DNA of 64,000 bases from Candidatus Eiseniibacteriota bacterium (GCA_043819135.1 JBDRFG010000072.1:8240-72239), one strand, 5' to 3'; positions 12,946-60,685 are shown, counted from the stretch's first letter. Notes: generated by a model not told the origin, from the sequence alone. Numbers and translations: made by a program.

Positions 12946-13857
12946 CTAGTAGATGAGCTCCGCGAGGACCGCCCCGACCTCCCTCAGGCTCCTGGGGCTG
13001 CACTTGTCAGGCGTGTCCCCTACGGTGTGCCAGTGGGCGTAGTCGAAGTCGATTATCAGGACGGCCGGAACGCCCGCCTGAATGAGAGGAATATGATCGT
13101 CGAACATCGCCGTGCCCGGCCCGTCGCTGAAGCTCGTCGCTCCTACGCGCTCTGCCGCGTCCCAGACCATCCTTACTATCGAGGGACAAGCGCTCGCCGA
13201 ATTCGGCTCGACGGGAATCGCGAGGTCGCGGTCTCCGACCATGTCCACGACCACGGCGTAGGCCGGTGCGTAGTCGCCCATTCTGCCCGCGAAGACGGTC
13301 GAGCCGATGCAGAAGTTGTCGAATCCGCCTCCGTTGCCTCCGTCCTCGCCGTCGAAGAAGACAAGGTCCACGCCAACATCGGGACTCCGCACCGACATCA
13401 TCGACGCAAGCGCCAGCAGAACGGCGACGCCGGACGCCCCGTCGTTGGCTCCACTGATCGGCGTGGCGCGGTTCATCTCGTCCGGATCGCGCTCCGCTAT
13501 CCGCCTCGTGTCCCAGTGCGCGCCGAAAAGCACCCTCTCCCGAGCGTCCATCCGGAAGGAGGCGATCACGTTCGAGAGCTTGACCTCCAGGCCGTCCGTG
13601 TCCAGCACCGTGAACTGCTGCACCGAGACCTCGTCGGCGTACCCCTGCAGGACGCCAATGAGCCACTCGCGCATGGCCTCGTGCGCGTCGCTTCCGGGCG
13701 GCCTCGGGCCGAACTCGCATTGCCGTTCGAGGAAGGTGAAGGCCAGATCGCCGTCGTACTCGGGCCTTCCGCAACCGGCCACAAAGGTGACCAGCACGAC
13801 AGCTCCGATAAGCACGAACACGGCGGCCGTGCGCCTGACAACATCGCGAGCAGCCAC
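12946..13857 (-). CDS. M28-family zinc metallo-lipoprotein, glutaminyl-cyclase-like (or aminopeptidase)
   Basis: Lipoprotein signal with lipobox (LVTFVAGC). Metal-ligand blocks HWDT, GANDGASGVAVLLALA, FFDGEDGG, VVDMVG, AHWHT parallel animal-type QC and M28 aminopeptidases. GTG start overlaps the stop of the giant upstream gene by 1 nt. Confidence 0.7.
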   Translation of the reverse strand: MAARDVVRRTAAVFVLIGAVVLVTFVAGCGRPEYDGDLAFTFLERQCEFGPRPPGSDAHEAMREWLIGVLQGYADEVSVQQFTVLDTDGLEVKLSNVIASFRMDARERVLFGAHWDTRRIAERDPDEMNRATPISGANDGASGVAVLLALASMMSVRSPDVGVDLVFFDGEDGGNGGGFDNFCIGSTVFAGRMGDYAPAYAVVVDMVGDRDLAIPVEPNSASACPSIVRMVWDAAERVGATSFSDGPGTAMFDDHIPLIQAGVPAVLIIDFDYAHWHTVGDTPDKCSPRSLREVGAVLAELIY

Positions 13858-16800
13858 TAGAACTTGAACTCCGCTGAGAGGTGCATGCCGATCGTTCGGC
13901 GCGTCTGGTCCCGCTTCTCGTCTCGGCTCTGCGAGAAGCTGATCTGCAGGCCGCCGGACACGCTTCTCGAGAAGCTGTAAGTGAGGTCCGTTGTCACCGA
14001 GAAGTCGCGCGTCGATGACGTCGGGTCTACCTGAAGCAGCCCGTGCTCGTCCTGGGCCGTTCGCGACACTTTCGCAGATGTGCGCAGGGTCAGCGACGTA
14101 TCCAGGTTGCTCTGGAACTTCAGTTTCTGCCCGAAGAATGGGAGCTTGAGACCCTGGGGTGCCGAGAATCTGTAGTTCAGGCTCAGGCTCATCGAGCCCG
14201 TGTCATCCTCGTTCACCGATCCTGCCCCCGTGAGGATGTAGCTCCTCGTCGTCCTCTTGTCCCACGAGAAATTGCCGGTGACTCCATTCTTGAACGTGGT
14301 GTCCACCGAGATCACCGGGTTCATACCGAACGCCTTGGCTCGGGTGGTCGGCTCGTCGGCCGGCCCGGAGTGAGAACGCTTGTACTCGACCCCGCTTCTC
14401 GCTCCGATCTTCGAGCACACGTTTGAGAGTGGCCCCAGCTTCTCGATGCCGTTCCACGAAAGCGTGCCCTTCCCACTCTCGCTCGTCGACCCTGTCTCCG
14501 TCGTCAGAGTGACCGAATCCGACAGGGCATTCTTGTACCAGCGTCCACCCGTGGTTCTCTTGTAGGAACCCTTCACACGCACCTGGCTCGTGACCTTCAG
14601 TCCCGAGTCGAGCGAGAGGGTGCGTTCCTCCGTACGGTCATCCGCCCCTTCACCGCTCGAGAGCCCGAGGCGATAGCTCCAGTCCGGCAACTGGCCAGCC
14701 GTGATCCGGTCGTACCGAGAGCTGGTCTTGATCGAGTAACGCGCCTCGATCGCGTCCGTGTTTCTCACAAGCGTCAGCACCGGACGTATCAGGTCTCCGA
14801 ACCCCGGACCCAGCGCCCCCTCATCGCCCTCCTCCGCGGACGTTTCCCCTTCGCCTCTCGTGGCCGCCGGCGGTTCACCCCCTTCGCCGCTCGGGGCCGT
14901 CGGCGGTTCATTCCCTTCGCCGCTCGGGGCCGTCGGCGGTTCATCACCGTCGCCGTTCTCGTCGACGCTGTCCCGACCCGCCTCCCGCGCGTCGGTGCGC
15001 TCGTCGACGCGTGGTGCCGTCTCTTCATCCGCATCGCCGGACGTCTCGGTCGGCTTCTCCTCGCGGTCTCCGCCCTCCCTGGTCTCCCTCCTGCCTCTGG
15101 GAGTGCCGCTCCGCGGAGTAGACGCCGGACCGAGCAGCTTCTTGATATCGAAGCTCGCACGTATGTCCTGGTTGTTCTGGGCACGCACGTCCCTGATACC
15201 GAAGGGGTCGCCCGCGCGGCGCACCTGCGGCCCGTGATTGTCCGTGAACGAAGAGCTGAAGCTGTACTGCGGCGCGAACCACCTCCCGAACTTGGGGTTG
15301 AAGCTCAGCGAGTTCGAATAGCGACGTTCGGTCTCGACCCCCGCGTTCAGATCGTAGACGACCCGGTTGATTGGTTCGAGATCCCGCTTCACCGCCACGC
15401 TGTGAGAGGTCCTGAGATTCTCCAGGAACTGGAAATCGATTCCCGCGTCCGCGTTCAGTTTCTTGTCGTGATTGTTCGAGCGCTGGGTCTTCACGCCGAT
15501 GGCCGAGATGTCGTAGTTCTGCGTGCGGATCAGGTGAACGTCCGTGTTGAATCTGAAGCTGGTCGGCTTGAGAAACAGCTCGGTGTTCCCGAACAGCCGC
15601 AGTCCCTGCTTCTCGGGAGAATACCTGTACGAGAGCCTGCCCCTGAGAGTTCTCGAGGTGTCGGCCTTCGTCGGAGACGCCTTCTCATGCTCGGCCAGCG
15701 ACGCGCGCAGCGACAATCCGTCCACGAGGAGATGCGTCCAGAAGTCGGGAGACTGTCGCTTCCTCGAAAGCGAAACCGCTATGCTCCTGTCGAGCGTCTC
15801 TGTCTTCTCGGACGCGCTCTGCTCCTCATCGAGCACGATGTCGGACCCGCTCGAGAATTTGGGTCTGCTGACCGATCGCTTCCACGTGACGTTGACCGGG
15901 GTCGATACGCCCAGCGCACTAACGAAACGATCCGCGTTCATCGTTCCTGTGAAATTGTAGGTGATGTTGTCCTGCCCGGAGCCGCGTAGCTGTTTCAGCG
16001 AATGGAACTCTCCGTCGACGTGCCTGAGGTCGAAGTCAACGTCGAGGAAGTCGGCAAACCTGGCCTCGACCGTCGCCCTCTCGGCCCAGCCGAGGTCTCT
16101 TCGGACCTCCGACAGACGGATGTCGTCCAACCACACCTCACCGGTGATGTCGGACGCGGCGGCCGCTTCGTTCCTGATACCCACAGTGAGCCGGCGGATC
16201 CTGGAGAGCGAGGGCCACCCCACGCGCCTGAACGTCTCCCCGCTGTACGCGCCCTCCGTCTCGGCCTCGTCCAGCGTGGCGAACTCGCCGAGCTTGAGGT
16301 CCGTGAAGCTTGTGAACGGGACAGTCAGAAGGTTGTCCCCGCTGCTCCTGTCCTGAAGCCACCCCGACCGGACTTCCAGGCTGTACTCGTAGTAGTTGAG
16401 CGAGTCGCGCCCCAGCCGCATGAAGAACACCGTGCCGTCCTCTACGGCGGCGCCACCGTGCAGGTAGAAGTCGAACGACTGATAGCCCGTGTAGTCCTCT
16501 TCGGAGTAGAACACCTTCCTTGCAGACGCCGTGTGCTCGCTACGCAGGTTCTCGTAGAGCAAGAAGATCGACTGTTCGCGCTTCGGAAGATTGGTGTCCT
16601 CATCAATTCCAGGATCAAACGGGGGATCGTAGTCCACGTCCTCCTTGGTGTTCTTCGTTCCGACCCGGAATCCCATGTCCCCCATGTTCTGGTCTGGAAC
16701 GACCTCGCCGTCCTCGTCGACGATCGGGCGCGGCTCCCACTGGCTCCCGACGATGTCCATCGACCCTATCATTATCTCGCCCGCGCCCACCGCAAGCCCG

Positions 16801-19800
16801 TTGGCCCAGATGCGAGCCGACTTAATCGACGTCCACGTGGCCATTCCGTTGGGCGACTCCGCGTGAGACAGCGGGAAGCGGTACTTCCTCCAGTAGTTGC
16901 CCGCGACCAGTTTGCTGTTGTCCTGGACGCGATACGTCGTGTCCGCCAGGTCAACCGTCAGCGTCCAGTAGCTGTTGTCCTGGTCCACGTACCCGTTCCC
17001 GTTCAGATCCTCCGTGTCCAGGCGCTCGTTGCCCTCTGTGCCGTTGATCTTCGAGTAGTCGTCGGAGTCGTATTCGAACTTGTAGTCGTCGTCGCCATCA
17101 TCGCCCGGCACGCCCTGCCCGTCGACGCCCGCCACCGTGTCGAGCCCGACGTCCTCGTCGGCGTCGAAACCGTTCGGTGGTACATCCACGTCTTCCGTCT
17201 CGAGCTCGCCGTTCGGCGACATCAGAGGGTAGTAGTCCTCGCTGATGTTTCCCAGATCGATGTAGAACGTACCGGTGGACTGCTCGATGGGTGCGCCGTC
17301 GTTTACCCACAGTTCGACGAACTGGTAGTCGGAGTAGTCGCTGCCGGTCTTGGACAGAAGTCTCATCAGTCCGGCCCACGACGCGGACCCGTCGGAGTCA
17401 TACGCGATCTCGAGCACGGTGTGAGAGTCGTCGGCTTCCTGCGCGGGCAGATCGGGATGAAGGTCGCCTTCCTGTACCTTGCGCTCCGGGTTGTACCAGT
17501 AGATATCCATCCGGTCTGACGCATCTATCTCGGGGAGATCGGGCACGCTGGAGGGGACCCACAGCCGTCTGGAGACGCCGAGCATGCTGACGTTCTCCGC
17601 CCCCTCCATGTCGTCGACGGACACGAATCCCTTGGTGTTCGGATTGGGTATCGACACGGCGGCCTCGGCGGAGATCTTCAACCGTGACTCCGCGTCCGTC
17701 TCGATGAAGGGAATCGCATCGACCACGCGGGTCATGAGCTCGGGCGTGAAGTCTGCTGAGAGGTTAACGTCGCCCACGACCGTCCGCGACGGCTCCTCAC
17801 CCAGCCGGGGACGATCCTCGGGCGTTCCCTTGCTCTGGTACATCCAGGTCGTCCCAAGCCTGATCTTCTCGCTCCAGTTGTAGACGCCCCTGGCTCCAAG
17901 CAGCGTTTTCTCACCCGCGATGCCGAAGGGCTTGTAGTCGTACTCGACAGTAACCTTGGCGTCGGGCTCCTTTGCCTCCTCCGCGAGGATCGTCAGCTGA
18001 CCGGCCGGATAATAGATGGTGTAGTCGGTACCACGCGTCAGCCTGACACCGTTCAGTCGGACGACCTCGCTGTTCTCAATGATGTTTATCTGACCGAGAT
18101 AGAACGTGGTCCTCGGACGGTTGTACTTGACGACGATGTAGTAGTCGTCGTCGCCCGCATCGAAGTTGTCCTTCGAGTAGACGGAGCAGTTCTTCTCGCT
18201 GTCTGAGAACTCGTCCGCGTAGTAGATGGGGTCGGGGCCGCCATCCGGCGCGTAGTAGAATCCCGTCGTGTCGTAGTCGGGGCAGAACGGTGTGAAGTGC
18301 GGAAAGCTGAGAAGGCCGTTCGTCAAGTCGAGCCAGGTCGGGTCCACATCACTGGAGCCAACACCGATCTCCTCGGTGTCCAGTCCAAGGAGCTTCGTGT
18401 ACGGCACGCCCGACTCATGGACTTCCTGGTCCTCCCCCGACGCGGCCGACCTGCGGATCGTCAGCTGGAACCCCTCTTCGGGAATGTCCTCTGCTCCCAG
18501 GTCGTAGATGTGCTTAAGTTCGTAGAGCCGTGTGCGTTCCCACCCGGTCGGCGTCGTGCTGTCGTCGTGCTTCATGAGCTTCAGGTACAGCGTCTGACTG
18601 CCCGCATCGTATCCGCCGACCGACACCGTGCCGCCGCCGTCCGTTACGCGCCCGTAGCTGACCGCGAGCATCTTCCCCTGCGTTATAGGGCGGGTCAGAA
18701 CGATCACACCCAGCTGGTAGCCGGATTCCTCGCCGTAGATCCCACTGCCCTGTGGGATGAAGTAGTCCTCGTTCTCGATGAGCTCGACAAAGAAACCCTC
18801 GCGACTGTAGGTAGCGTCGGCCGGAGGAGCTGCGCCCGGAGGCTCCTCGAGGTAGGCGATTCCCTCCTGCGCACCGTCCGACGTGTCGTTGGAGGAGATC
18901 CGGTCGTCCAGGTAGACTCTGATATTCTGGGCGCCAACATTGGAGTACTTGAGCGCCAGGTCGTCGATGACGAAGAACTTCCCGGCCCTGTACGAGATGT
19001 CCCTGATAACCAGCGAGTCCGATTCCGACGTGCCCGTGAAGTTCGCGCCCGCGGACTTGCCCTCCTCCTTGCTCGCAACGGTGACAAGCTCGAGCTTGCC
19101 TACCTTGGCCGTCATCTTCGCGCCGAAGAGGCCTTGGTGGTGACCGCTGTAGCTGACGAACTCCGTGCCCGGCAGCGACAGGTTGACCTCTCCGAGCTCT
19201 ATCTTCTGGATGATCTCGTCCTCGTCGCCTTCGTAGTGGACCCTGATCTGGTCCGCCTTGCTCCCGCCGAACGTGTCGCCTCCACTGCGATGGTCGACGT
19301 AGACGTGGATCTTGCGGCCGATCGTCCCCTCGAGATTGACCGTGAGCTGCTGCTGCATGTCCAGCTGGGGAAATCTCGACGGGCGCCCCGACTCTGTCTC
19401 GAGCGCCTCGACAACGTAGCTCGTCTGGCCACCGAACGTGATCCGCTCGCTACCACGCACCTTGAGATTCGCGCCCGGACCGATGGCCCGGACGAAGGGA
19501 CCGGGCAGCGGCATCGGTATGTCGATGTCGAGGAGGCCACGCCCCTGGCCGGTCTCAGCTCTGCCCAGCCTCTTGTGTATGACCTTCTCCCAGGCCTCCA
19601 GCACCATCGCGTCGCCCGCAAGGCGCTGATATTCGGCCAGTGGCGCCGCATAGCTCACCCACGACGTATGCTTGCCCACATCCGTAACAATGGTCATCGT
19701 CCCGTTCTCGTGGTCCACGACCACCCTCCGTGAGAACGGGACGGACGACGGGGCTCCCGGCGGCATCGAGGGCCGTCCTACCGCCAGACCCTTTGGCCGC

Positions 19801-20168
19801 GCGTCCACCAGAGACCAGGGCCTGAAGAAGGCGCTGTCCCGCTTGGGAAGAACCGAAACGCCGGGCGCGTAGGGCGCACGCGCGATCTCGGGCTCAGCAA
19901 CGGCGGGCAGGGAATCGGCACCCGCCGTACCGAGGCTGTCAGGTACGACGCCGAAGAGCGTTGTGGGTGCGAGGCTGTCAGGTGGGACCGTCGAGATCAT
20001 CGCGGAGTCAGCAGGCGAGCCCCCCTCCTCGAGGACCGCCGGCTCGCCGCCACCCCCGCTCTCATCGGTTCCGAGGACAGGACCCGTGGCGCAGAGCAGC
20101 AAAATGAACGCGAAGACCGTCGCGGCTGTCGGAGAGACTGTCGTCCGGACGGCGCCATCGAGAAACAT
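13857..20168 (-). CDS. Giant (2104 aa) secreted outer-membrane beta-barrel protein, SprA-like (candidate T9SS translocon); function unproven
   Basis: Start reassigned to MFLDGAVR (GGAG RBS about 11 nt upstream), which gives a classic signal peptide. C-terminus ...GMHLSAEFKF has the OMP terminal-Phe signature with alternating amphipathic strands. Very rich in D/G/S/T/Y/N. Size is in the range of SprA. Confidence 0.5.
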   Translation of the reverse strand: MFLDGAVRTTVSPTAATVFAFILLLCATGPVLGTDESGGGGEPAVLEEGGSPADSAMISTVPPDSLAPTTLFGVVPDSLGTAGADSLPAVAEPEIARAPYAPGVSVLPKRDSAFFRPWSLVDARPKGLAVGRPSMPPGAPSSVPFSRRVVVDHENGTMTIVTDVGKHTSWVSYAAPLAEYQRLAGDAMVLEAWEKVIHKRLGRAETGQGRGLLDIDIPMPLPGPFVRAIGPGANLKVRGSERITFGGQTSYVVEALETESGRPSRFPQLDMQQQLTVNLEGTIGRKIHVYVDHRSGGDTFGGSKADQIRVHYEGDEDEIIQKIELGEVNLSLPGTEFVSYSGHHQGLFGAKMTAKVGKLELVTVASKEEGKSAGANFTGTSESDSLVIRDISYRAGKFFVIDDLALKYSNVGAQNIRVYLDDRISSNDTSDGAQEGIAYLEEPPGAAPPADATYSREGFFVELIENEDYFIPQGSGIYGEESGYQLGVIVLTRPITQGKMLAVSYGRVTDGGGTVSVGGYDAGSQTLYLKLMKHDDSTTPTGWERTRLYELKHIYDLGAEDIPEEGFQLTIRRSAASGEDQEVHESGVPYTKLLGLDTEEIGVGSSDVDPTWLDLTNGLLSFPHFTPFCPDYDTTGFYYAPDGGPDPIYYADEFSDSEKNCSVYSKDNFDAGDDDYYIVVKYNRPRTTFYLGQINIIENSEVVRLNGVRLTRGTDYTIYYPAGQLTILAEEAKEPDAKVTVEYDYKPFGIAGEKTLLGARGVYNWSEKIRLGTTWMYQSKGTPEDRPRLGEEPSRTVVGDVNLSADFTPELMTRVVDAIPFIETDAESRLKISAEAAVSIPNPNTKGFVSVDDMEGAENVSMLGVSRRLWVPSSVPDLPEIDASDRMDIYWYNPERKVQEGDLHPDLPAQEADDSHTVLEIAYDSDGSASWAGLMRLLSKTGSDYSDYQFVELWVNDGAPIEQSTGTFYIDLGNISEDYYPLMSPNGELETEDVDVPPNGFDADEDVGLDTVAGVDGQGVPGDDGDDDYKFEYDSDDYSKINGTEGNERLDTEDLNGNGYVDQDNSYWTLTVDLADTTYRVQDNSKLVAGNYWRKYRFPLSHAESPNGMATWTSIKSARIWANGLAVGAGEIMIGSMDIVGSQWEPRPIVDEDGEVVPDQNMGDMGFRVGTKNTKEDVDYDPPFDPGIDEDTNLPKREQSIFLLYENLRSEHTASARKVFYSEEDYTGYQSFDFYLHGGAAVEDGTVFFMRLGRDSLNYYEYSLEVRSGWLQDRSSGDNLLTVPFTSFTDLKLGEFATLDEAETEGAYSGETFRRVGWPSLSRIRRLTVGIRNEAAAASDITGEVWLDDIRLSEVRRDLGWAERATVEARFADFLDVDFDLRHVDGEFHSLKQLRGSGQDNITYNFTGTMNADRFVSALGVSTPVNVTWKRSVSRPKFSSGSDIVLDEEQSASEKTETLDRSIAVSLSRKRQSPDFWTHLLVDGLSLRASLAEHEKASPTKADTSRTLRGRLSYRYSPEKQGLRLFGNTELFLKPTSFRFNTDVHLIRTQNYDISAIGVKTQRSNNHDKKLNADAGIDFQFLENLRTSHSVAVKRDLEPINRVVYDLNAGVETERRYSNSLSFNPKFGRWFAPQYSFSSSFTDNHGPQVRRAGDPFGIRDVRAQNNQDIRASFDIKKLLGPASTPRSGTPRGRRETREGGDREEKPTETSGDADEETAPRVDERTDAREAGRDSVDENGDGDEPPTAPSGEGNEPPTAPSGEGGEPPAATRGEGETSAEEGDEGALGPGFGDLIRPVLTLVRNTDAIEARYSIKTSSRYDRITAGQLPDWSYRLGLSSGEGADDRTEERTLSLDSGLKVTSQVRVKGSYKRTTGGRWYKNALSDSVTLTTETGSTSESGKGTLSWNGIEKLGPLSNVCSKIGARSGVEYKRSHSGPADEPTTRAKAFGMNPVISVDTTFKNGVTGNFSWDKRTTRSYILTGAGSVNEDDTGSMSLSLNYRFSAPQGLKLPFFGQKLKFQSNLDTSLTLRTSAKVSRTAQDEHGLLQVDPTSSTRDFSVTTDLTYSFSRSVSGGLQISFSQSRDEKRDQTRRTIGMHLSAEFKF
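14846..14944 (-). repeat. Three tandem 30-33-nt repeats inside the giant gene encoding (G/N)EPPTAPSGEG within an acidic disordered insertion
   Basis: Seen in sequence: cccttcgccgctcggggccgtcggcggttca occurs twice plus one degenerate copy. Encodes DEPPTAPSGEGNEPPTAPSGEGGEPPAATRGEG. Confidence 0.8.
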
Positions 20169-20494
20169 GTTAAGGACTCCGCTTTCGAGAAGAACGCCCG
20201 GCGCAGGCCGGGTCGCAGGTGCTCGTGCGCTGGGTCGTGTCTGCCGCGCCCGGCTGACTCCGCGACGATGCCGAGAGGCCGTCCGGTGCACCAGAGACAA
20301 CAGGCCCCGCACGCGGCTTCACGCGAGGCGACATCCGGCCGATACGGCGGAGCGGAATGTAGCAAAGCAAACCGCACATGTCAAGTTGGCCCAGCTCGTG
20401 GTCAGCCGCGTCCCAGGCGTGAATATACAGTGCGTGCATCGCCTCCAATTCCCGGGTTGCGGGCGCTCCGCAGACGATGTCACGGACAATGATA

Positions 20495-53991: not shown

Positions 53992-54390
53992 CTAGCTCTC
54001 GGAGGAAACCTGCTGAGCGAGTTCTTCGAGGCGGTGAATCGCCTTGGTGATCTCGTTGAGACGGAATTCGATCGAGTTCAGGATCCAGAACTGAAAATGC
54101 TCCACTCGGCCCTGCTTGTGGATCATCCAGATGATCTTTACGGACACCAGCAGCACACCGAGCTCGATGGAGAAGATCGGCGGCAGCGGCATCTCAACGC
54201 CGAGGGCGTGACGAAGCACGTCCACGACAAAGAGGAGCGCAATTGCGCTCAGAAACATGACGTTCAACACTCGGTCTCGCTTGTTCGACGCGACACCACC
54301 GATCTGACCGACGAGAGTGCGTATCTTCTCTTTCTCGTTCCTGAACTGCTCCAGCTCCTCCTGAAGAGCCGTGGTGTCCATTGATGCCAT
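53992..54390 (-). CDS. Hypothetical two-TM membrane protein with N-terminal coiled coil (low GC)
   Basis: 132 aa. No recognised motif. GC about 56% versus about 67% locally. Confidence 0.4.
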   Translation of the reverse strand: MASMDTTALQEELEQFRNEKEKIRTLVGQIGGVASNKRDRVLNVMFLSAIALLFVVDVLRHALGVEMPLPPIFSIELGVLLVSVKIIWMIHKQGRVEHFQFWILNSIEFRLNEITKAIHRLEELAQQVSSES

Positions 54391-54445: not shown

Positions 54446-54967
54446 TCATTCCCAGAACCTCTCGAATCGCTCCCGTGACGCCTTGCAGATGGGACAGGTC
54501 TCGGGCGGCTGCTCGCGCGCGCACAGATATCCGCACACCCGACACCGCCATACCGGCAGGGAGCCCTTCCCGGGCGCGGCCCCGCCCTGCGGAACCGCGC
54601 TCACGCGCGCTCTTTGATCTTGCGTAGCCGGCCGCCTCTCCGGTATTGCCTCGAGCGCCCTACCACCCTCGAGGACTTCCTTCGACACGTACAGGGCGCA
54701 ATAGCAGGCGCCCCACTCCGCGAGGTCGGCGTCCCTGTAGTCGCATGGACACACTATGTCCAGGTCTTCCGCCGCGTCACCGGACGCCAGACGACAGGGG
54801 CAGCTTCCGTACCCGAAGCGCCCCTCGTTGACGAGGAGCCCCTCCGCCAGTGCGCCTGAGAACGCGGGGTCGGGATTGAGATGGTAGCCGCTGGATTCGG
54901 CATCGCGGTCCAGTACGGCTCGGAGCGCCTCTGTTTCCTCGTTCGGAATGCTGGAGTCAGTGCTCAA
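54446..54967 (-). CDS. Ferredoxin:disulfide reductase (FTR catalytic-subunit-like domain fused to C-terminal rubredoxin-like domain)
   Basis: FTR-beta motif SCPCRL...DIVCPCDY...CYC. C-terminal WRCRVCGY...CPICK rubredoxin knuckles. Probable TTG start forming TTGA with the upstream glutaredoxin stop. The track ORF (ATG at 55063) would overlap the neighbour by 100 nt. Confidence 0.65.
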   Translation of the reverse strand: MSTDSSIPNEETEALRAVLDRDAESSGYHLNPDPAFSGALAEGLLVNEGRFGYGSCPCRLASGDAAEDLDIVCPCDYRDADLAEWGACYCALYVSKEVLEGGRALEAIPERRPATQDQRARVSAVPQGGAAPGKGSLPVWRCRVCGYLCAREQPPETCPICKASRERFERFWE

Positions 54968-55254
54968 AACCCGAGGATCTCCTTCGCCTCGTCCGGCTTG
55001 TATCCGTTCACCGACCGGACCCCGTCGATCACGAGCGTCGGGAAAGACACGGCCGGATTCCACCTGCGCACCTCACCAAGCGCCGCATCCCGCTCGGCGC
55101 TCTCGAGCTTGTCGACGTACACGACCGCGAACACCACGCCCTCGCTCTCAAGAAACTGCCTCATCTTCTTGCACCATACGCACGTCGACAGACCGTACAT
55201 GACGACGTCGTGCTCCGACGCTCCACCCGGTCCGTCACCCGCCGTCGACATCAT
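54964..55254 (-). CDS. Glutaredoxin/thioredoxin-fold protein (CxxC)
   Basis: VVMYGLSTCVWCKK...FPTLVIDG. Confidence 0.75.
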   Translation of the reverse strand: MMSTAGDGPGGASEHDVVMYGLSTCVWCKKMRQFLESEGVVFAVVYVDKLESAERDAALGEVRRWNPAVSFPTLVIDGVRSVNGYKPDEAKEILGF

Positions 55255-55266
55255 CTGCCTTTCCCC

Positions 55267-55572
55267 TTATCGCCGAACGCCACGCCCGAGGACGCGCTCG
55301 ACGTCCTCGATCTTGCCCGTCAGACGTCCGGTCGCTCCCTTACGGTCATCTATCGTGATCGAGGTGAGAACGCGCGGCGCGAACTCGCGCGCGGCGCGGT
55401 GGCACTTCAGGATGAGGCCTATCACCTCATCCTCGTTCCCCTCGACCGTGGTCTCCATCGCGCCGAGCCTGTAGTCCAGGCCGGAGTCGTCTATTATGGC
55501 GACTATCTTCGCGACGTGTTCGCTCAGCGCCTCCCCGACGCCGACCGGCAGCACGCTGAAGCTCGCAAGCAA
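55267..55572 (-). CDS. MTH1187/YkoF-family (DUF77) protein
   Basis: 101 aa, MLASFSVLPVGVGEALSEHVAKIV... Confidence 0.6.
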   Translation of the reverse strand: MLASFSVLPVGVGEALSEHVAKIVAIIDDSGLDYRLGAMETTVEGNEDEVIGLILKCHRAAREFAPRVLTSITIDDRKGATGRLTGKIEDVERVLGRGVRR

Positions 55573-55599: not shown

Positions 55600-56319
55600 C
55601 TAGGTCCTTCGGAAGACCAAAACGCTCGACGACATTGTGCCGGGATCGAACTCCGCACCGACGAAGCTCCCCTTGTGAGCGATCAGCTCGAATCCGGCCT
55701 CACGGTGCGCCTGGACGTACCCCTCGCCGCGCACGGGGAAGAGAGTCGCCTCCCCCTCGAAAACGGAACGCTCTCCGTCGCTAAGGCGCGTTCTGAAGAG
55801 CACCTTCTCCTCCGAGATCTCCGGGTAGCTTCGTTCGAACACGAGGCCCGTGCCCTGCACGGGCACGTCCTCGAACGTGTATGACCCCTGATTGAGAACG
55901 AAGTCCCAGTTGACGGTCTGGACCACCCACGTCGCGTCCTGCGTCAGGCGCTCGCGCAACGCCCAGAGGAAGTCCGAGAGCCGGTGAGTCGCCAGGTGAG
56001 ACGCCACGTTGCCTATACAGTAGGCGGCCCCGAACAGGCCCTTCAGCGAGCCGATGTCTTCCATGCCAAGCACGCGGAACTTGGACGCGGGATACGTCTT
56101 CTTCGCACGCTCTATCATCCATTGGTCGAGGTCGACGCCGAGAGTCTCGTACCCCTGAGATGCAAGACGTCCGCAGTAGTCGCCGGTCCCGCAGCCCACG
56201 TCAAGCACACGCGTCGCGCTCGAGGGGAAGCGACTTCGGAGAAACGAATACGTCTCTTCGTCGAACGGAAAGACAGCGTCGTAGTACCCAGCGAACTCCG
56301 AATAGAACGACATACACAT
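55600..56319 (-). CDS. Class I SAM-dependent methyltransferase
   Basis: Motif I VLDVGCGTGDY. Start taken at MCMSFYSEF. Confidence 0.75.
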   Translation of the reverse strand: MCMSFYSEFAGYYDAVFPFDEETYSFLRSRFPSSATRVLDVGCGTGDYCGRLASQGYETLGVDLDQWMIERAKKTYPASKFRVLGMEDIGSLKGLFGAAYCIGNVASHLATHRLSDFLWALRERLTQDATWVVQTVNWDFVLNQGSYTFEDVPVQGTGLVFERSYPEISEEKVLFRTRLSDGERSVFEGEATLFPVRGEGYVQAHREAGFELIAHKGSFVGAEFDPGTMSSSVLVFRRT

Positions 56320-56351
56320 AGCTCCCGTCCGCCGGGCTATTCCCCGGCCCG

Positions 56352-58028
56352 TCACTTGGTTATCCTGGCCCACGTGTCACGCAGTGAGACCGTCCTGTTG
56401 AACACCAGAGCGCCTTGTCCCGAATCCGCACCGTCGATGCAGAAATACCCCTGCCTCAGGAACTGATATGTGGTTCCCGGTCCGGCATCACGGAGGCCGG
56501 GTTCCACCATGCATCCAGCGAGCACGCTCAGCGACTCGGGATTCAGAAGCTCCTTGAAGTCCTTCGTGCCGTCGCTGTCGCCACGCAGCAGAAGGTGATC
56601 GAAGAGCCGCACCTCCGCAGGAACGGCGTGCCGGGCCGAGACCCAGTGAAGCGTGCCCCTGACCTTGCGACCGTCAGGCGCCTCTCCACCGCGCGAACCG
56701 GGATCGTACGTGCAGTGCAGTTCCGTCACCTCCCCCGTCGCCTCGTCCCTGACCACGCTCTCGCAGGTTACCAGATACGCGTGCTTCAGCCGGACCTCCC
56801 TGCCGGGCGCAAGCCGGAAGAACTTCTTCGGTGGGTCCTCCATGAAATCCTCGCGCTCGACGTACACCACCTTCGAGAACGGCAGCTCCCGTGACCCGCC
56901 GTCCGGATCCTCCGGGTTGTTTACGGCCGAGAACATCTCGACCTCGTCGTCGGGGTAGTTGTCTATCACGACCCGCAGAGGCCTTAGCACCGCCATCACG
57001 CGCTGGGACACCCTGTTCAGATCCTCCCTCAGGCAGTGCTCCAGCAGCGCCACGTCGATGACGCTGTCCGTTTTGGCGACGCCGACCCGCCTGAGGAACT
57101 CCTTGATGGATGCCGGAGTGTAGCCCCGCCTCCTGAGGCCCGCGAGCGTGGGCATGCGCGGGTCGTTCCATCCCCACACATGCCCCTCGCCCACGAGTTC
57201 TTTCAAGCGCCGCTTGCTCAGCACCGTGCGGCTCAGGTAGAGGCGCGCGAACTCGATCTGCCGCGGATGGTGGATCCCCAGCTCGTCCAGATACCAGTCA
57301 TACAGCGGTCGATGGTCCTCGAACTCTATCGAGCATATGGAATGCGTTATCCCCTCGATGGAATCGCTCTGCCCGTGAGTCCAGTCGTACGTGGGATAGA
57401 TGCTCCACTTGCTGCCCGTTCGGTGGTGCGCGGCGTGGAGAATCCTGTACATCACCGGGTCGCGCAGATTGATGTTCGGGGAGGCCATGTCGATCTTCGC
57501 GCGCAAGGTCCTCCTACCGTTGTCGAATTCGCCCGCGCGCATGCGCTCGAAGAGGTCCAGGTTCTCCTCGACGGTGCGGTCGCGGTAGGGACTGTTCGTG
57601 CCGGGATCGGTCAGTGTGCCGCGGTACTCTCTGGTCTCGTCCGGACTCAGGTCGCAGACGTAGGCCTTGCCGTCCCTGATGAGCTTGAGCGCGTACTCGT
57701 ACAGCTCGTCGAAATAGTCGGACGCGTAGTGGAGCCGGTCGCCCCAGTCGTAGCCGAGCCACCGGATGTCCTCCATGATCGAGTCTACGAACTCCGTCTC
57801 CTCCGCCAGTGGGTTGGTATCGTCGAACCGGAGGTTGCAGGAGCCCCCATACTCCGCGGCGATGCTGAAGTTGAGATTGAAGGCCTTGGCGTGCCCAATG
57901 TGAAGGCAGCCGTTGGGCTCCGGTGGGAAGCGCGTTTGCACCCGTCCGTCGTTCTTGCCGGTCCGAATGTCCTCCTCGACTATCGCCCTGACGAAATCGA
58001 CGGAGCCGGATGTCTCGGAAGCTGCCAT
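56352..58028 (-). CDS. glnS: Glutamine--tRNA ligase
   Basis: [17 protein letters not shown] (HIGH). Class-I catalytic core plus two C-terminal beta-barrel anticodon-binding domains. 558 aa. Confidence 0.85.
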
Positions 58029-58165
58029 CAGCGCTCTCCAATGGTAGGTGCGTTAACCCGCGCCTGCTCGGGCTGGAAGCCCGTCAAGAGCGCATTCTAC
58101 AGCTACCGTGCGTGCTGTTCAAGGACGGGACTGAGCTGTTGATCTCATCCCGGGCCACCCTTCGG

Positions 58166-59578: not shown

Positions 59579-60685
59579 TCACCTCACGTCATCAACGGAA
59601 ATACCCCGTTCCTTCGCCTTGCGGTCCATCCACTGCCCGGAATTTTCCGGGGGCCGTTCGACTTCGCCCTCGGGCCGCCGCTCCATGGCGAGCGCCTCCA
59701 CGGCACAGGCGGACACGCACACTCCGCACCCCACGCATCGCGCGTAGTCTACCACCGACAGATCCCCGTCCTTTGAAAGCGCACCGAACTGACACCGGCG
59801 GACGCACGCCCCGCATCCCGTGCACCTGTCCTCCGCCACGACAGCACGGAAGTCGGACCTGGCCACGGCCGTGGGGACACCGAACTCCGCCACACCTCTC
59901 ATGACGCCGCAACAGCACGTGCAGCAATTGCAGATGTAGAATATCTGGTCGCGCTGGTTCATCGTCGAGTGCACGAGCCCCTCGTCCGCCGCCTGCGCCA
60001 GGATACGGCGGGCCTCGTACTTCGTGATCGGGCGCGTTTCTCCGCTCCCGTCGAAGACGCCCTCCTTCGGGGCGAAAACGAGGCAGTTCTCCACAGTGTG
60101 GTCACAGCCCTTGCCGATGAGCTTCTGCTGCACGCGGCAGATGCAGTTTCGCACGCCCCACGCCCCGGCCCTTTCGAGGAGCTCCGACGCTCTCTCATAC
60201 GGGAATATGTCCAGATCCTGCGGGACGGACTCGTCGACGGGTATCACCCTGTGGACCGACGCCCCGCCGTCCGCGTTGCTGCCCCCTTCGCTCTCCGTCA
60301 TCCAGTTCTCGAACAGAACAGCCATCTCCTCGTCCATCCGGCCGAGCTGCTGCTCGTAGACGCCGACGATGAACGGCATCAGCGAGTACCCGGGACCTGA
60401 CTCCCCTCCGGCCACACGGATGAGTCCATTGCTGCGCATCTCACTCAGCATGCGGGCCGCCGTCTCTCCGTCCACGCCCCCGCGCTCACCTATCTGCGCG
60501 GCCGGTTCGGGGCTCAGCCGCATCACGCACGCGAGCTCCGCTTCCTCGCGAGTGAAGAGCTTCTCGAGCAGCCTCAACTCGGCTCCGCTCGTTGTCGCCG
60601 CGAACCCGTTTGGGATCTCGTCAAGCCGTCTTGCCAACCTTCTGTAGACATCATCACTCATCCGACGTCTCCGATCAGATCCCAC
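59579..60685 (-). CDS. Fe-S cluster protein with unusual CNCCTCCCG motif plus 2x[4Fe-4S] ferredoxin domain
   Basis: CxxCxxCxxxC repeats (CTGCGACVRRC, CVGCGVCVSAC) preceded by FYICNCCTCCCGVM. N-terminal region without known motif. Confidence 0.6.
   Translation of the reverse strand: MGSDRRRRMSDDVYRRLARRLDEIPNGFAATTSGAELRLLEKLFTREEAELACVMRLSPEPAAQIGERGGVDGETAARMLSEMRSNGLIRVAGGESGPGYSLMPFIVGVYEQQLGRMDEEMAVLFENWMTESEGGSNADGGASVHRVIPVDESVPQDLDIFPYERASELLERAGAWGVRNCICRVQQKLIGKGCDHTVENCLVFAPKEGVFDGSGETRPITKYEARRILAQAADEGLVHSTMNQRDQIFYICNCCTCCCGVMRGVAEFGVPTAVARSDFRAVVAEDRCTGCGACVRRCQFGALSKDGDLSVVDYARCVGCGVCVSACAVEALAMERRPEGEVERPPENSGQWMDRKAKERGISVDDVR

Follow-up and report, generated by a model that had tools for sequence, protein, structure and literature searches.

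A methanoredoxin-type redoxin gene coupled to a ferredoxin:disulfide reductase gene in Candidatus Eisenbacteria: a probable two-gene disulfide relay

The stretch of DNA analysed here, hereafter the window, comprises 64,000 nucleotides (64% GC) of a Candidatus Eisenbacteria metagenome-assembled genome (MAG; GCA_043819135.1, JBDRFG010000072.1:8240-72239), with positions counted from its first nucleotide. Between 54446 and 55254, on the minus strand like every other window gene located by coordinates below, the window carries two adjacent genes for a glutaredoxin-like redoxin and a ferredoxin:disulfide reductase (FDR), which very probably constitute a translationally coupled two-gene disulfide-relay module of the FDR/methanoredoxin type. 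The domain content of the two proteins, their catalytic residues, their orthology to solved proteins, the start codon of the reductase, the junction that couples the genes and their near-obligate pairing are direct observations of this analysis. With the pair, a ferredoxin-dependent disulfide-reductase system characterized so far only in Methanosarcina gains a member from an uncultured phylum. The finding opens no new question, as the enzyme class and its enzymology, the structure of FDR, the redoxin class and a naturally fused form are already on record; the quantified reciprocal pairing and the conserved NTGA coupling reported below may or may not be new.

Organization of the gene pair and its junction

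The first gene (54964..55254) starts with ATG and encodes a 96-residue protein beginning with MMSTAGDG (MFH1689638.1), which matches the Pfam glutaredoxin family (PF00462, E 1.7e-11). Its active site, S23-T24-C25-V-W27-C28, lies within the sequence YGLSTCVWCKK, with the CxxC of STCVWC encoded at nucleotides 55182..55171 and with P72 as the candidate for the cis-proline. The second gene (54446..54967, stop codon included) encodes the 173-residue FDR from a TTG start, and an identical 173-residue product is held by NCBI as MFH1689637.1 (Candidatus Eisenbacteria bacterium), with the neighboring products numbered consecutively. This protein joins two domains. The first one, of the catalytic type found in ferredoxin:thioredoxin reductase (FTR), extends over residues 12–101 according to the limits of the Pfam match (54665..54934; PF02943, FeThRed_B; E 1.3e-20, 73.8 bits, cut-off 22), and holds the motifs C56-P-C58, C73-P-C75, and C88-Y-C90, the first of them encoded by TGC CCC TGT at 54802..54794. 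The second one is a rubredoxin-like domain at residues 140–169 (54461..54550; PF21349, E 6.8e-15), with the motifs C142-x-x-C145 and C158-x-x-C161. The profiles and the conserved motifs thus bear out the original prediction, at a level far above chance, which had described an FTR-beta-type CPC/CPC/CYC domain fused to a rubredoxin C-terminus and, just upstream of it, a glutaredoxin-fold protein with STCVWC.

The stop codon of the redoxin gene and the start codon of the FDR gene overlap in the tetranucleotide TTGA (54964..54967), and an AAGGAG motif resembling a Shine-Dalgarno sequence (54979..54984) is located 11 nt 5' of the TTG, in the 3' end of the redoxin gene, where it forms the codons K-E of the C-terminal ...KEILGF. 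The TTG start with its TTGA overlap had been anticipated by the original prediction, which also named a long ATG-initiated frame as the rival start. Such a frame does exist, but it is initiated by GTG at position 55063 and not by ATG; it would yield 205 residues and overlap the redoxin gene by 100 nt, and it is neither conserved nor real coding sequence. Over the 96-nt extension, the GC content at third codon positions (GC3) is 0.41 in the FDR frame versus 0.90 in the glutaredoxin frame, the value for the body of the FDR gene being 0.76. In related genomes, an NTGA overlap is found at the redoxin–FDR junction in 70 of 75 loci (49 ATGA, 16 GTGA, and 5 TTGA), with TTGA used by all four other Eisenbacteria loci, and a motif of the AAGGAGG or AGGGAGG type occupies an equivalent position, at an equivalent distance, in most of the related loci compared. 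FDR homologs started at the junction are 166–184 residues long, with 173 residues in the enzyme from Methanosarcina acetivorans. As for the database homologs of 205–220 residues, their extra length corresponds to a second tandem C-terminal rubredoxin domain, and they bear no N-terminal extension. The GC3 contrast, the lengths of the homologs and the nature of these longer proteins rule out the 205-residue frame as the true FDR. Thus, because of four lines of evidence—the GC3 contrast, the conserved NTGA overlap, the homolog lengths, and the identical NCBI product—the TTG at 54967 is the correct FDR start. The TTGA is taken as the translational-coupling junction of the two genes.

Relatives and conserved residues of both proteins

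The best solved relative of the Eisenbacteria FDR is 4TPU, the FDR of M. acetivorans, which matches residues 9–172 of the 173 (E 2.6e-58) with 56% identity over 162 aligned residues. Both proteins are 173 residues long, are built of an FTR-catalytic-like domain followed by a rubredoxin-like domain, and share identical CPC/CPC/CYC and CxxC...CPxC motifs. They differ in the linker between the domains, which diverges (residues ~113–137), and in the host, a methanogen in one case and a bacterial Candidatus Eisenbacteria MAG in the other. FDRs are iron-sulfur enzymes related to the FTR catalytic subunit, and in M. acetivorans their partners include a thioredoxin, which the enzyme reduces (PMC6262447).

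An alignment of 82 sequences, consisting of the window protein, 4TPU and the reductases of 80 genome loci, reveals that the ten metal and disulfide cysteines, six in the catalytic domain and four in the rubredoxin domain, are all invariant. Position 89, between the cysteines of the third catalytic motif, is Tyr in 77 of the sequences, Phe in the remaining 5, and His in none. Besides these ten, a fifth cysteine of the rubredoxin domain, C149 (in VCGYLCAR; codon 54521..54523), is present in 81 of the 82 sequences, 4TPU included, although it is not a canonical metal ligand. The family is large and very widespread, with at least 7,946 database proteins at E<=1e-5, some of them named ferredoxin:glutaredoxin reductase (e.g., P0068). 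The expectations that the closest relative would be the M. acetivorans FDR and that the iron-sulfur and disulfide cysteines would survive alignment are therefore confirmed. The occurrence of this architecture in Methanosarcina FDR also stands; its restriction to a few further anaerobes does not.

In FTR, which takes its electrons from ferredoxin, six cysteines build a [4Fe-4S] cluster beside a redox-active disulfide. The FTR enzymes 1DJ7, 2PU9, and 7BZK have a catalytic domain homologous to that of FDR, with the same six cysteines, but true FTR catalytic subunits match FDR only weakly (E 0.002–0.1). FTR, a heterodimer in which the catalytic subunit is joined by a variable one, lacks a rubredoxin domain, carries a His in its CHC motif, and reduces canonical thioredoxins, whereas the Eisenbacteria FDR has the Tyr of a CYC motif, a rubredoxin domain, and a glutaredoxin-like partner. 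The His of the plant-type enzyme, as stated above for position 89, is absent throughout the alignment.

Judged by its relatives, the redoxin is a methanoredoxin-type glutaredoxin-like protein, a specific identity that the original prediction had missed when it correctly recognized a CxxC redoxin. Its two best structural matches are 3NZN (E 5.6e-26, 50.5% identity), annotated just as 'Glutaredoxin' in the PDB search and presumably from Methanosarcina mazei, and 5CAX (E 6.7e-23, 46.5% identity), which we take to be the methanoredoxin of M. acetivorans. Both of them share with the redoxin the glutaredoxin fold, an identical YGLSTCVWCKK sequence, the SFPT cis-Pro region, and a C-terminal ...LGF. 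Residues S23, T24, C25, W27, C28, P72, and G84 are invariant in 76 sequences, and the active-site motif is C[VGI]WC. Methanoredoxin is a glutaredoxin-like protein disulfide reductase that was characterized with coenzyme M as its reductant (PMC7278568), while for the Eisenbacteria redoxin the co-translated FDR is the sole evident reductant. Coenzyme M would not be expected in this host.

Other redoxin families were considered and rejected. The NrdH models score far too low (TIGR02194, 25.8 bits against a cut-off of 85.75; NF007657, 23 against 131), and the C[VGI]WC motif is not of the CVQC type. The YruB family does not fit either (TIGR02196, 36.7 bits against 88.55), and in the same scan with NCBIfam-type profiles the protein remains well under the cut-offs of the Grx3 and mycoredoxin models.

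Pairing across lineages, proposed relay and alternative functions

The association of both genes was assessed in two directions. For the genome scan, which started from FDR, one genome was taken per species and the best 80 of 329 relatives were kept. In 75 of these 80 loci, the gene immediately before FDR on the same strand encodes a redoxin homolog, and three of the five loci that lack it are cut by a contig end. Chloroflexota contribute 52 of the 80 loci, and the others include Eisenbacteria, WOR-3, Zixibacteria, Elusimicrobiales, Bipolaricaulota, Thermotogae, Actinomycetota, Clostridia, Syntrophus, Syntrophorhabdus, Methanobacterium, Methanoregula, Methanospirillum, and Thermoplasmatales. 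For the reverse test, metagenomes were scanned with a pattern of the redoxin only (LSTC[VGI]WC[KRG][KR]), which yielded 80 loci; among the 78 of them with room downstream, FDR follows directly on the same strand in 75. The reciprocal adjacency therefore amounts to ~96%.

Both modules can also be found in one protein. The PDB entry 7PWE, entitled 'glutaredoxin/ferredoxin disulfide reductase fusion protein from Desulfotalea psychrophila', aligns to the redoxin with its residues 4–83 (E 5.3e-10) and to FDR with its residues 87–190 (E 1.2e-27), so that the glutaredoxin and FTR-catalytic modules follow the same order as the Eisenbacteria genes. However, 7PWE is a single polypeptide of 196 residues without a rubredoxin domain, unlike the two coupled proteins of the window, one of which does hold that domain. 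The literature search turned up no paper on 7PWE or the Desulfotalea fusion. Because of the near-obligate adjacency, the conserved translational coupling, and the natural fusion, a direct functional partnership of redoxin and FDR is the only economical reading, and the adjacency and the fusion support the earlier suggestion that the CxxC redoxin is a likely dedicated substrate. Even in lineages that are very far apart, FDR and the glutaredoxin-like protein are passed on together as a closely coupled unit, which represents strong genomic support for the redoxin as the physiological substrate of FDR. From the pairing also follows an easy rule by which both genes, as well as the non-ATG start of FDR, can be annotated in MAGs.

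The rubredoxin module is the variable part of the unit. The Eisenbacteria FDR and 4TPU hold one copy. Two tandem rubredoxin-like domains are seen in the FDR homologs P0014, P0016, P0020, P0026, and P0027, of 205–220 residues. The constant partner of the redoxin is the catalytic domain, and this variation fits a role of the rubredoxin domain as an accessory module for electron entry.

The metal content of FDR, ferredoxin as its donor, the direction of the electron flow, and the redoxin as its direct substrate are proposed here from homology to the M. acetivorans FDR and to plant and cyanobacterial FTR. According to this proposal, reduced ferredoxin would give single electrons to a C-terminal Fe(Cys)4 centre formed by C142, C145, C158, and C161, from which they would move to the active-site [4Fe-4S] cluster, with C56, C73, C75, and C88 as its probable ligands. 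The cluster would then open the adjacent disulfide (presumably C58-C90) by two successive transfers of one electron, through a one-electron intermediate, with Tyr89 predicted to sit where FTR has its essential His. The resulting dithiol of FDR would reduce the C25-V-W-C28 disulfide of the redoxin by thiol–disulfide exchange, and the redoxin would pass the reducing equivalents on to disulfide targets of the cell. The residue mapping and the one-electron chemistry follow what is established for FTR and what has been reported for the M. acetivorans FDR. The latter is reported to reduce methanoredoxin and Trx5, and in that enzyme electrons reportedly enter via the rubredoxin centre, with a Tyr said to stand in place of the FTR His.

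Several points weigh against such a relay. In the literature searched, no biochemistry was found on the Eisenbacteria FDR or any bacterial ortholog. The AlphaFold2 model is poor (mean pLDDT 59), so the assignment of the fold rests on sequence and not on the model; in a Foldseek search with this model, 4TPU and 7PWE rank first, with a TM of only ~0.4. Ten of the paired reductases from the metagenome loci (111–130 residues) have no rubredoxin domain, which implies that the partnership can do without the rubredoxin step, perhaps an accessory one. Finally, coenzyme M, too, can reduce methanoredoxin in methanogens (PMC7278568), and therefore FDR need not be the sole reductant of this redoxin family. 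With regard to the short reductases, those of loci L094, L098, L100, L110, L111, L118, L132, L153, and L160 are still encoded directly downstream of a methanoredoxin-type gene.

A broader proposal, which should be taken as tentative and rather doubtful, is that redoxin and FDR form a near-obligate coupled unit in a very large number of anaerobic Bacteria and Archaea, acting as an autonomous 'third' system for disulfide reduction in the cytoplasm, driven by ferredoxin, beside those of NADPH-thioredoxin reductase (NTR)/thioredoxin and glutathione/glutaredoxin. Equally tentative, as a part of the same proposal, is the suggestion that the architectures of the unit are interchangeable, with one, two, or no rubredoxin domain, or with the reductase fused to the redoxin. 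If this holds true, bacteria without coenzyme M and glutathione could depend on the unit as their chief or even sole path to the redoxin.

Three alternative functions have to be weighed against the disulfide relay, all of them improbable. The one that survives best, although its probability is low, considers the pair a dedicated supply of reductant for an anaerobic (class III) ribonucleotide reductase, with the redoxin acting as an NrdH-like protein. In Methanosarcina barkeri, FDR and a thioredoxin-like NrdH reportedly feed electrons to the class III enzyme, a report that counts in favor of this function, as does the weak NrdH match of the redoxin (TIGR02194). However, this match falls far under the cut-off given above, and the redoxin holds CVWC rather than CVQC. 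A motif-based test of the 80 genome loci found no open reading frame with a C-terminal glycyl-radical motif within ~6 kb of the pair, and the sole RVCGY match in the window is the rubredoxin motif of FDR itself. A ribonucleotide reductase encoded elsewhere could be one of several targets of the redoxin, but a role of the M. barkeri type as a dedicated function is not supported.

Less probable still, and indeed very unlikely, is that FDR works as an ordinary FTR on canonical thioredoxins, with an independent, thiol-cofactor-dependent glutaredoxin that is merely co-expressed with it. The homology of its catalytic domain to that of FTR (PF02943; 7BZK and 1DJ7 at E 0.002–0.03), the reduction of thioredoxin by the M. 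acetivorans FDR (PMC6262447), and the ability of coenzyme M to serve methanoredoxin as a reductant (PMC7278568) would all agree with this function. Nevertheless, the identity to true FTR catalytic subunits is low, and in the active site Tyr or Phe takes the place of the essential His of FTR, which no aligned sequence has. In addition, the ~96% reciprocal adjacency, the conserved 4-nt overlap, and the glutaredoxin–FDR fusion would be difficult to account for if the two proteins were not direct partners, the window encodes no canonical WCGPC thioredoxin, and bacteria of this kind are not known as makers of coenzyme M, as far as can be inferred.

The last alternative, a module for iron-sulfur cluster or persulfide/sulfur trafficking (for instance, by the reduction of persulfides on carrier proteins) instead of general protein-disulfide repair, is just as improbable: the pair often lies near genes for NifU/IscU (18 loci), TusA (15), DsrE2-type proteins (15), and cysteine desulfurase (14), but these neighbors are almost wholly from Chloroflexota and may reflect the synteny of one lineage, the same loci carry rubrerythrin-like (26 loci), MsrA (9), and peroxiredoxin-like genes that point to oxidative-stress repair, and none of all these genes is found near the pair in the window or in the other Eisenbacteria loci. 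In Chloroflexota (L004–L079), the pair also occurs among genes for ferritin-like proteins, nitroreductases, and 2-oxoacid:ferredoxin oxidoreductases. The Chloroflexota context suggests oxidative-damage repair and/or iron-sulfur and sulfur trafficking, with a local source of ferredoxin, and is essentially the synteny of one phylum.

Neighborhood of the pair and remaining genes of the window

The pair belongs to a co-directional string of genes that runs from glnS through genes for a methyltransferase, an MTH1187 family protein, the redoxin, FDR, a 132-residue membrane protein, and a BrkB/YihY protein to a DUF6642 gene. The genes directly upstream of the pair encode the MTH1187 family protein (55267..55572; PF01910, E 8.8e-27; TIGR00106) and a class I S-adenosylmethionine-dependent methyltransferase (55600..56373), both recognized by profile matches and in the same orientation as the pair, as the original prediction had them. 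Downstream, the 132-residue hypothetical membrane protein (53992..54390; MFH1689636.1) starts 55 nt past the FDR stop. It consists of a charged N-terminal helix followed by hydrophobic segments, has homologs in just 5 of the 80 loci, and matches no Pfam or NCBIfam model. After the BrkB/YihY gene, the segment 51624..53084 encodes the DUF6642 protein (196 residues, E 3e-28) and a 276-residue protein without a Pfam match, both conserved in Eisenbacteria loci. A wider operon was rejected as part of the module: beyond the four Eisenbacteria loci, the genes for the MTH1187 and methyltransferase proteins, the 132-residue protein, BrkB/YihY, and DUF6642 reappear in no more than one or two loci, and this wider string is treated as lineage synteny outside the redoxin–FDR module. 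Consensus scans, which are not used as evidence here, gave a sole promoter-like minus-strand site upstream of the pair, before glnS (58122..58094), and nothing resembling a terminator between FDR and the gene that follows it.

Approximately 4.3 kb upstream of the pair, a gene at 59579..60685 encodes a 368-residue protein whose C-terminal domain is of the 2x[4Fe-4S] ferredoxin type (PF00037, E 2.7e-12). Synteny of this gene extends to the Eisenbacteria loci L002, L003, and L009, and outside this lineage it has no link to the pair; a role as electron donor to FDR is conceivable.

Neither an NTR motif (CA[TVI]CD) nor a thioredoxin motif (WC[GP]PC) occurs in any frame of the 64-kb window, and Pfam scans of 28 window proteins detected no NTR or canonical thioredoxin, a result that holds for the window and says nothing on the genome. 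Whether the genome has NTR, the check proposed with the original prediction, would in any case not reveal what the pair does, since M. acetivorans carries both NTR and FDR, the latter being functional alongside the former in Methanosarcina (PMC6262447). No oxygen-related markers of an aerobe or anaerobe were found among the window genes, and a literature search on Eisenbacteria metabolism returned nothing usable.

The remaining window is rich in housekeeping genes, including pnp, infB, nusA, lptFG, metK, phosphotransferase system (PTS) genes, rpoN, kds genes, pyrG, and glnS; lipopolysaccharide-transport and Kdo genes are represented. A 2,151-residue open reading frame (13857..20312) matches SprA_N (PF14349, E 3.3e-18), of the translocon family of type IX secretion and gliding motility, and this giant SprA-like protein is consistent with the affiliation of the host to the FCB group. 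Just downstream of rpoN, the segment 35980..37133 encodes a 303-residue radical-SAM protein whose gene shares a 4-nt overlap with that of an 81-residue protein bearing a biotin/lipoyl-attachment domain.

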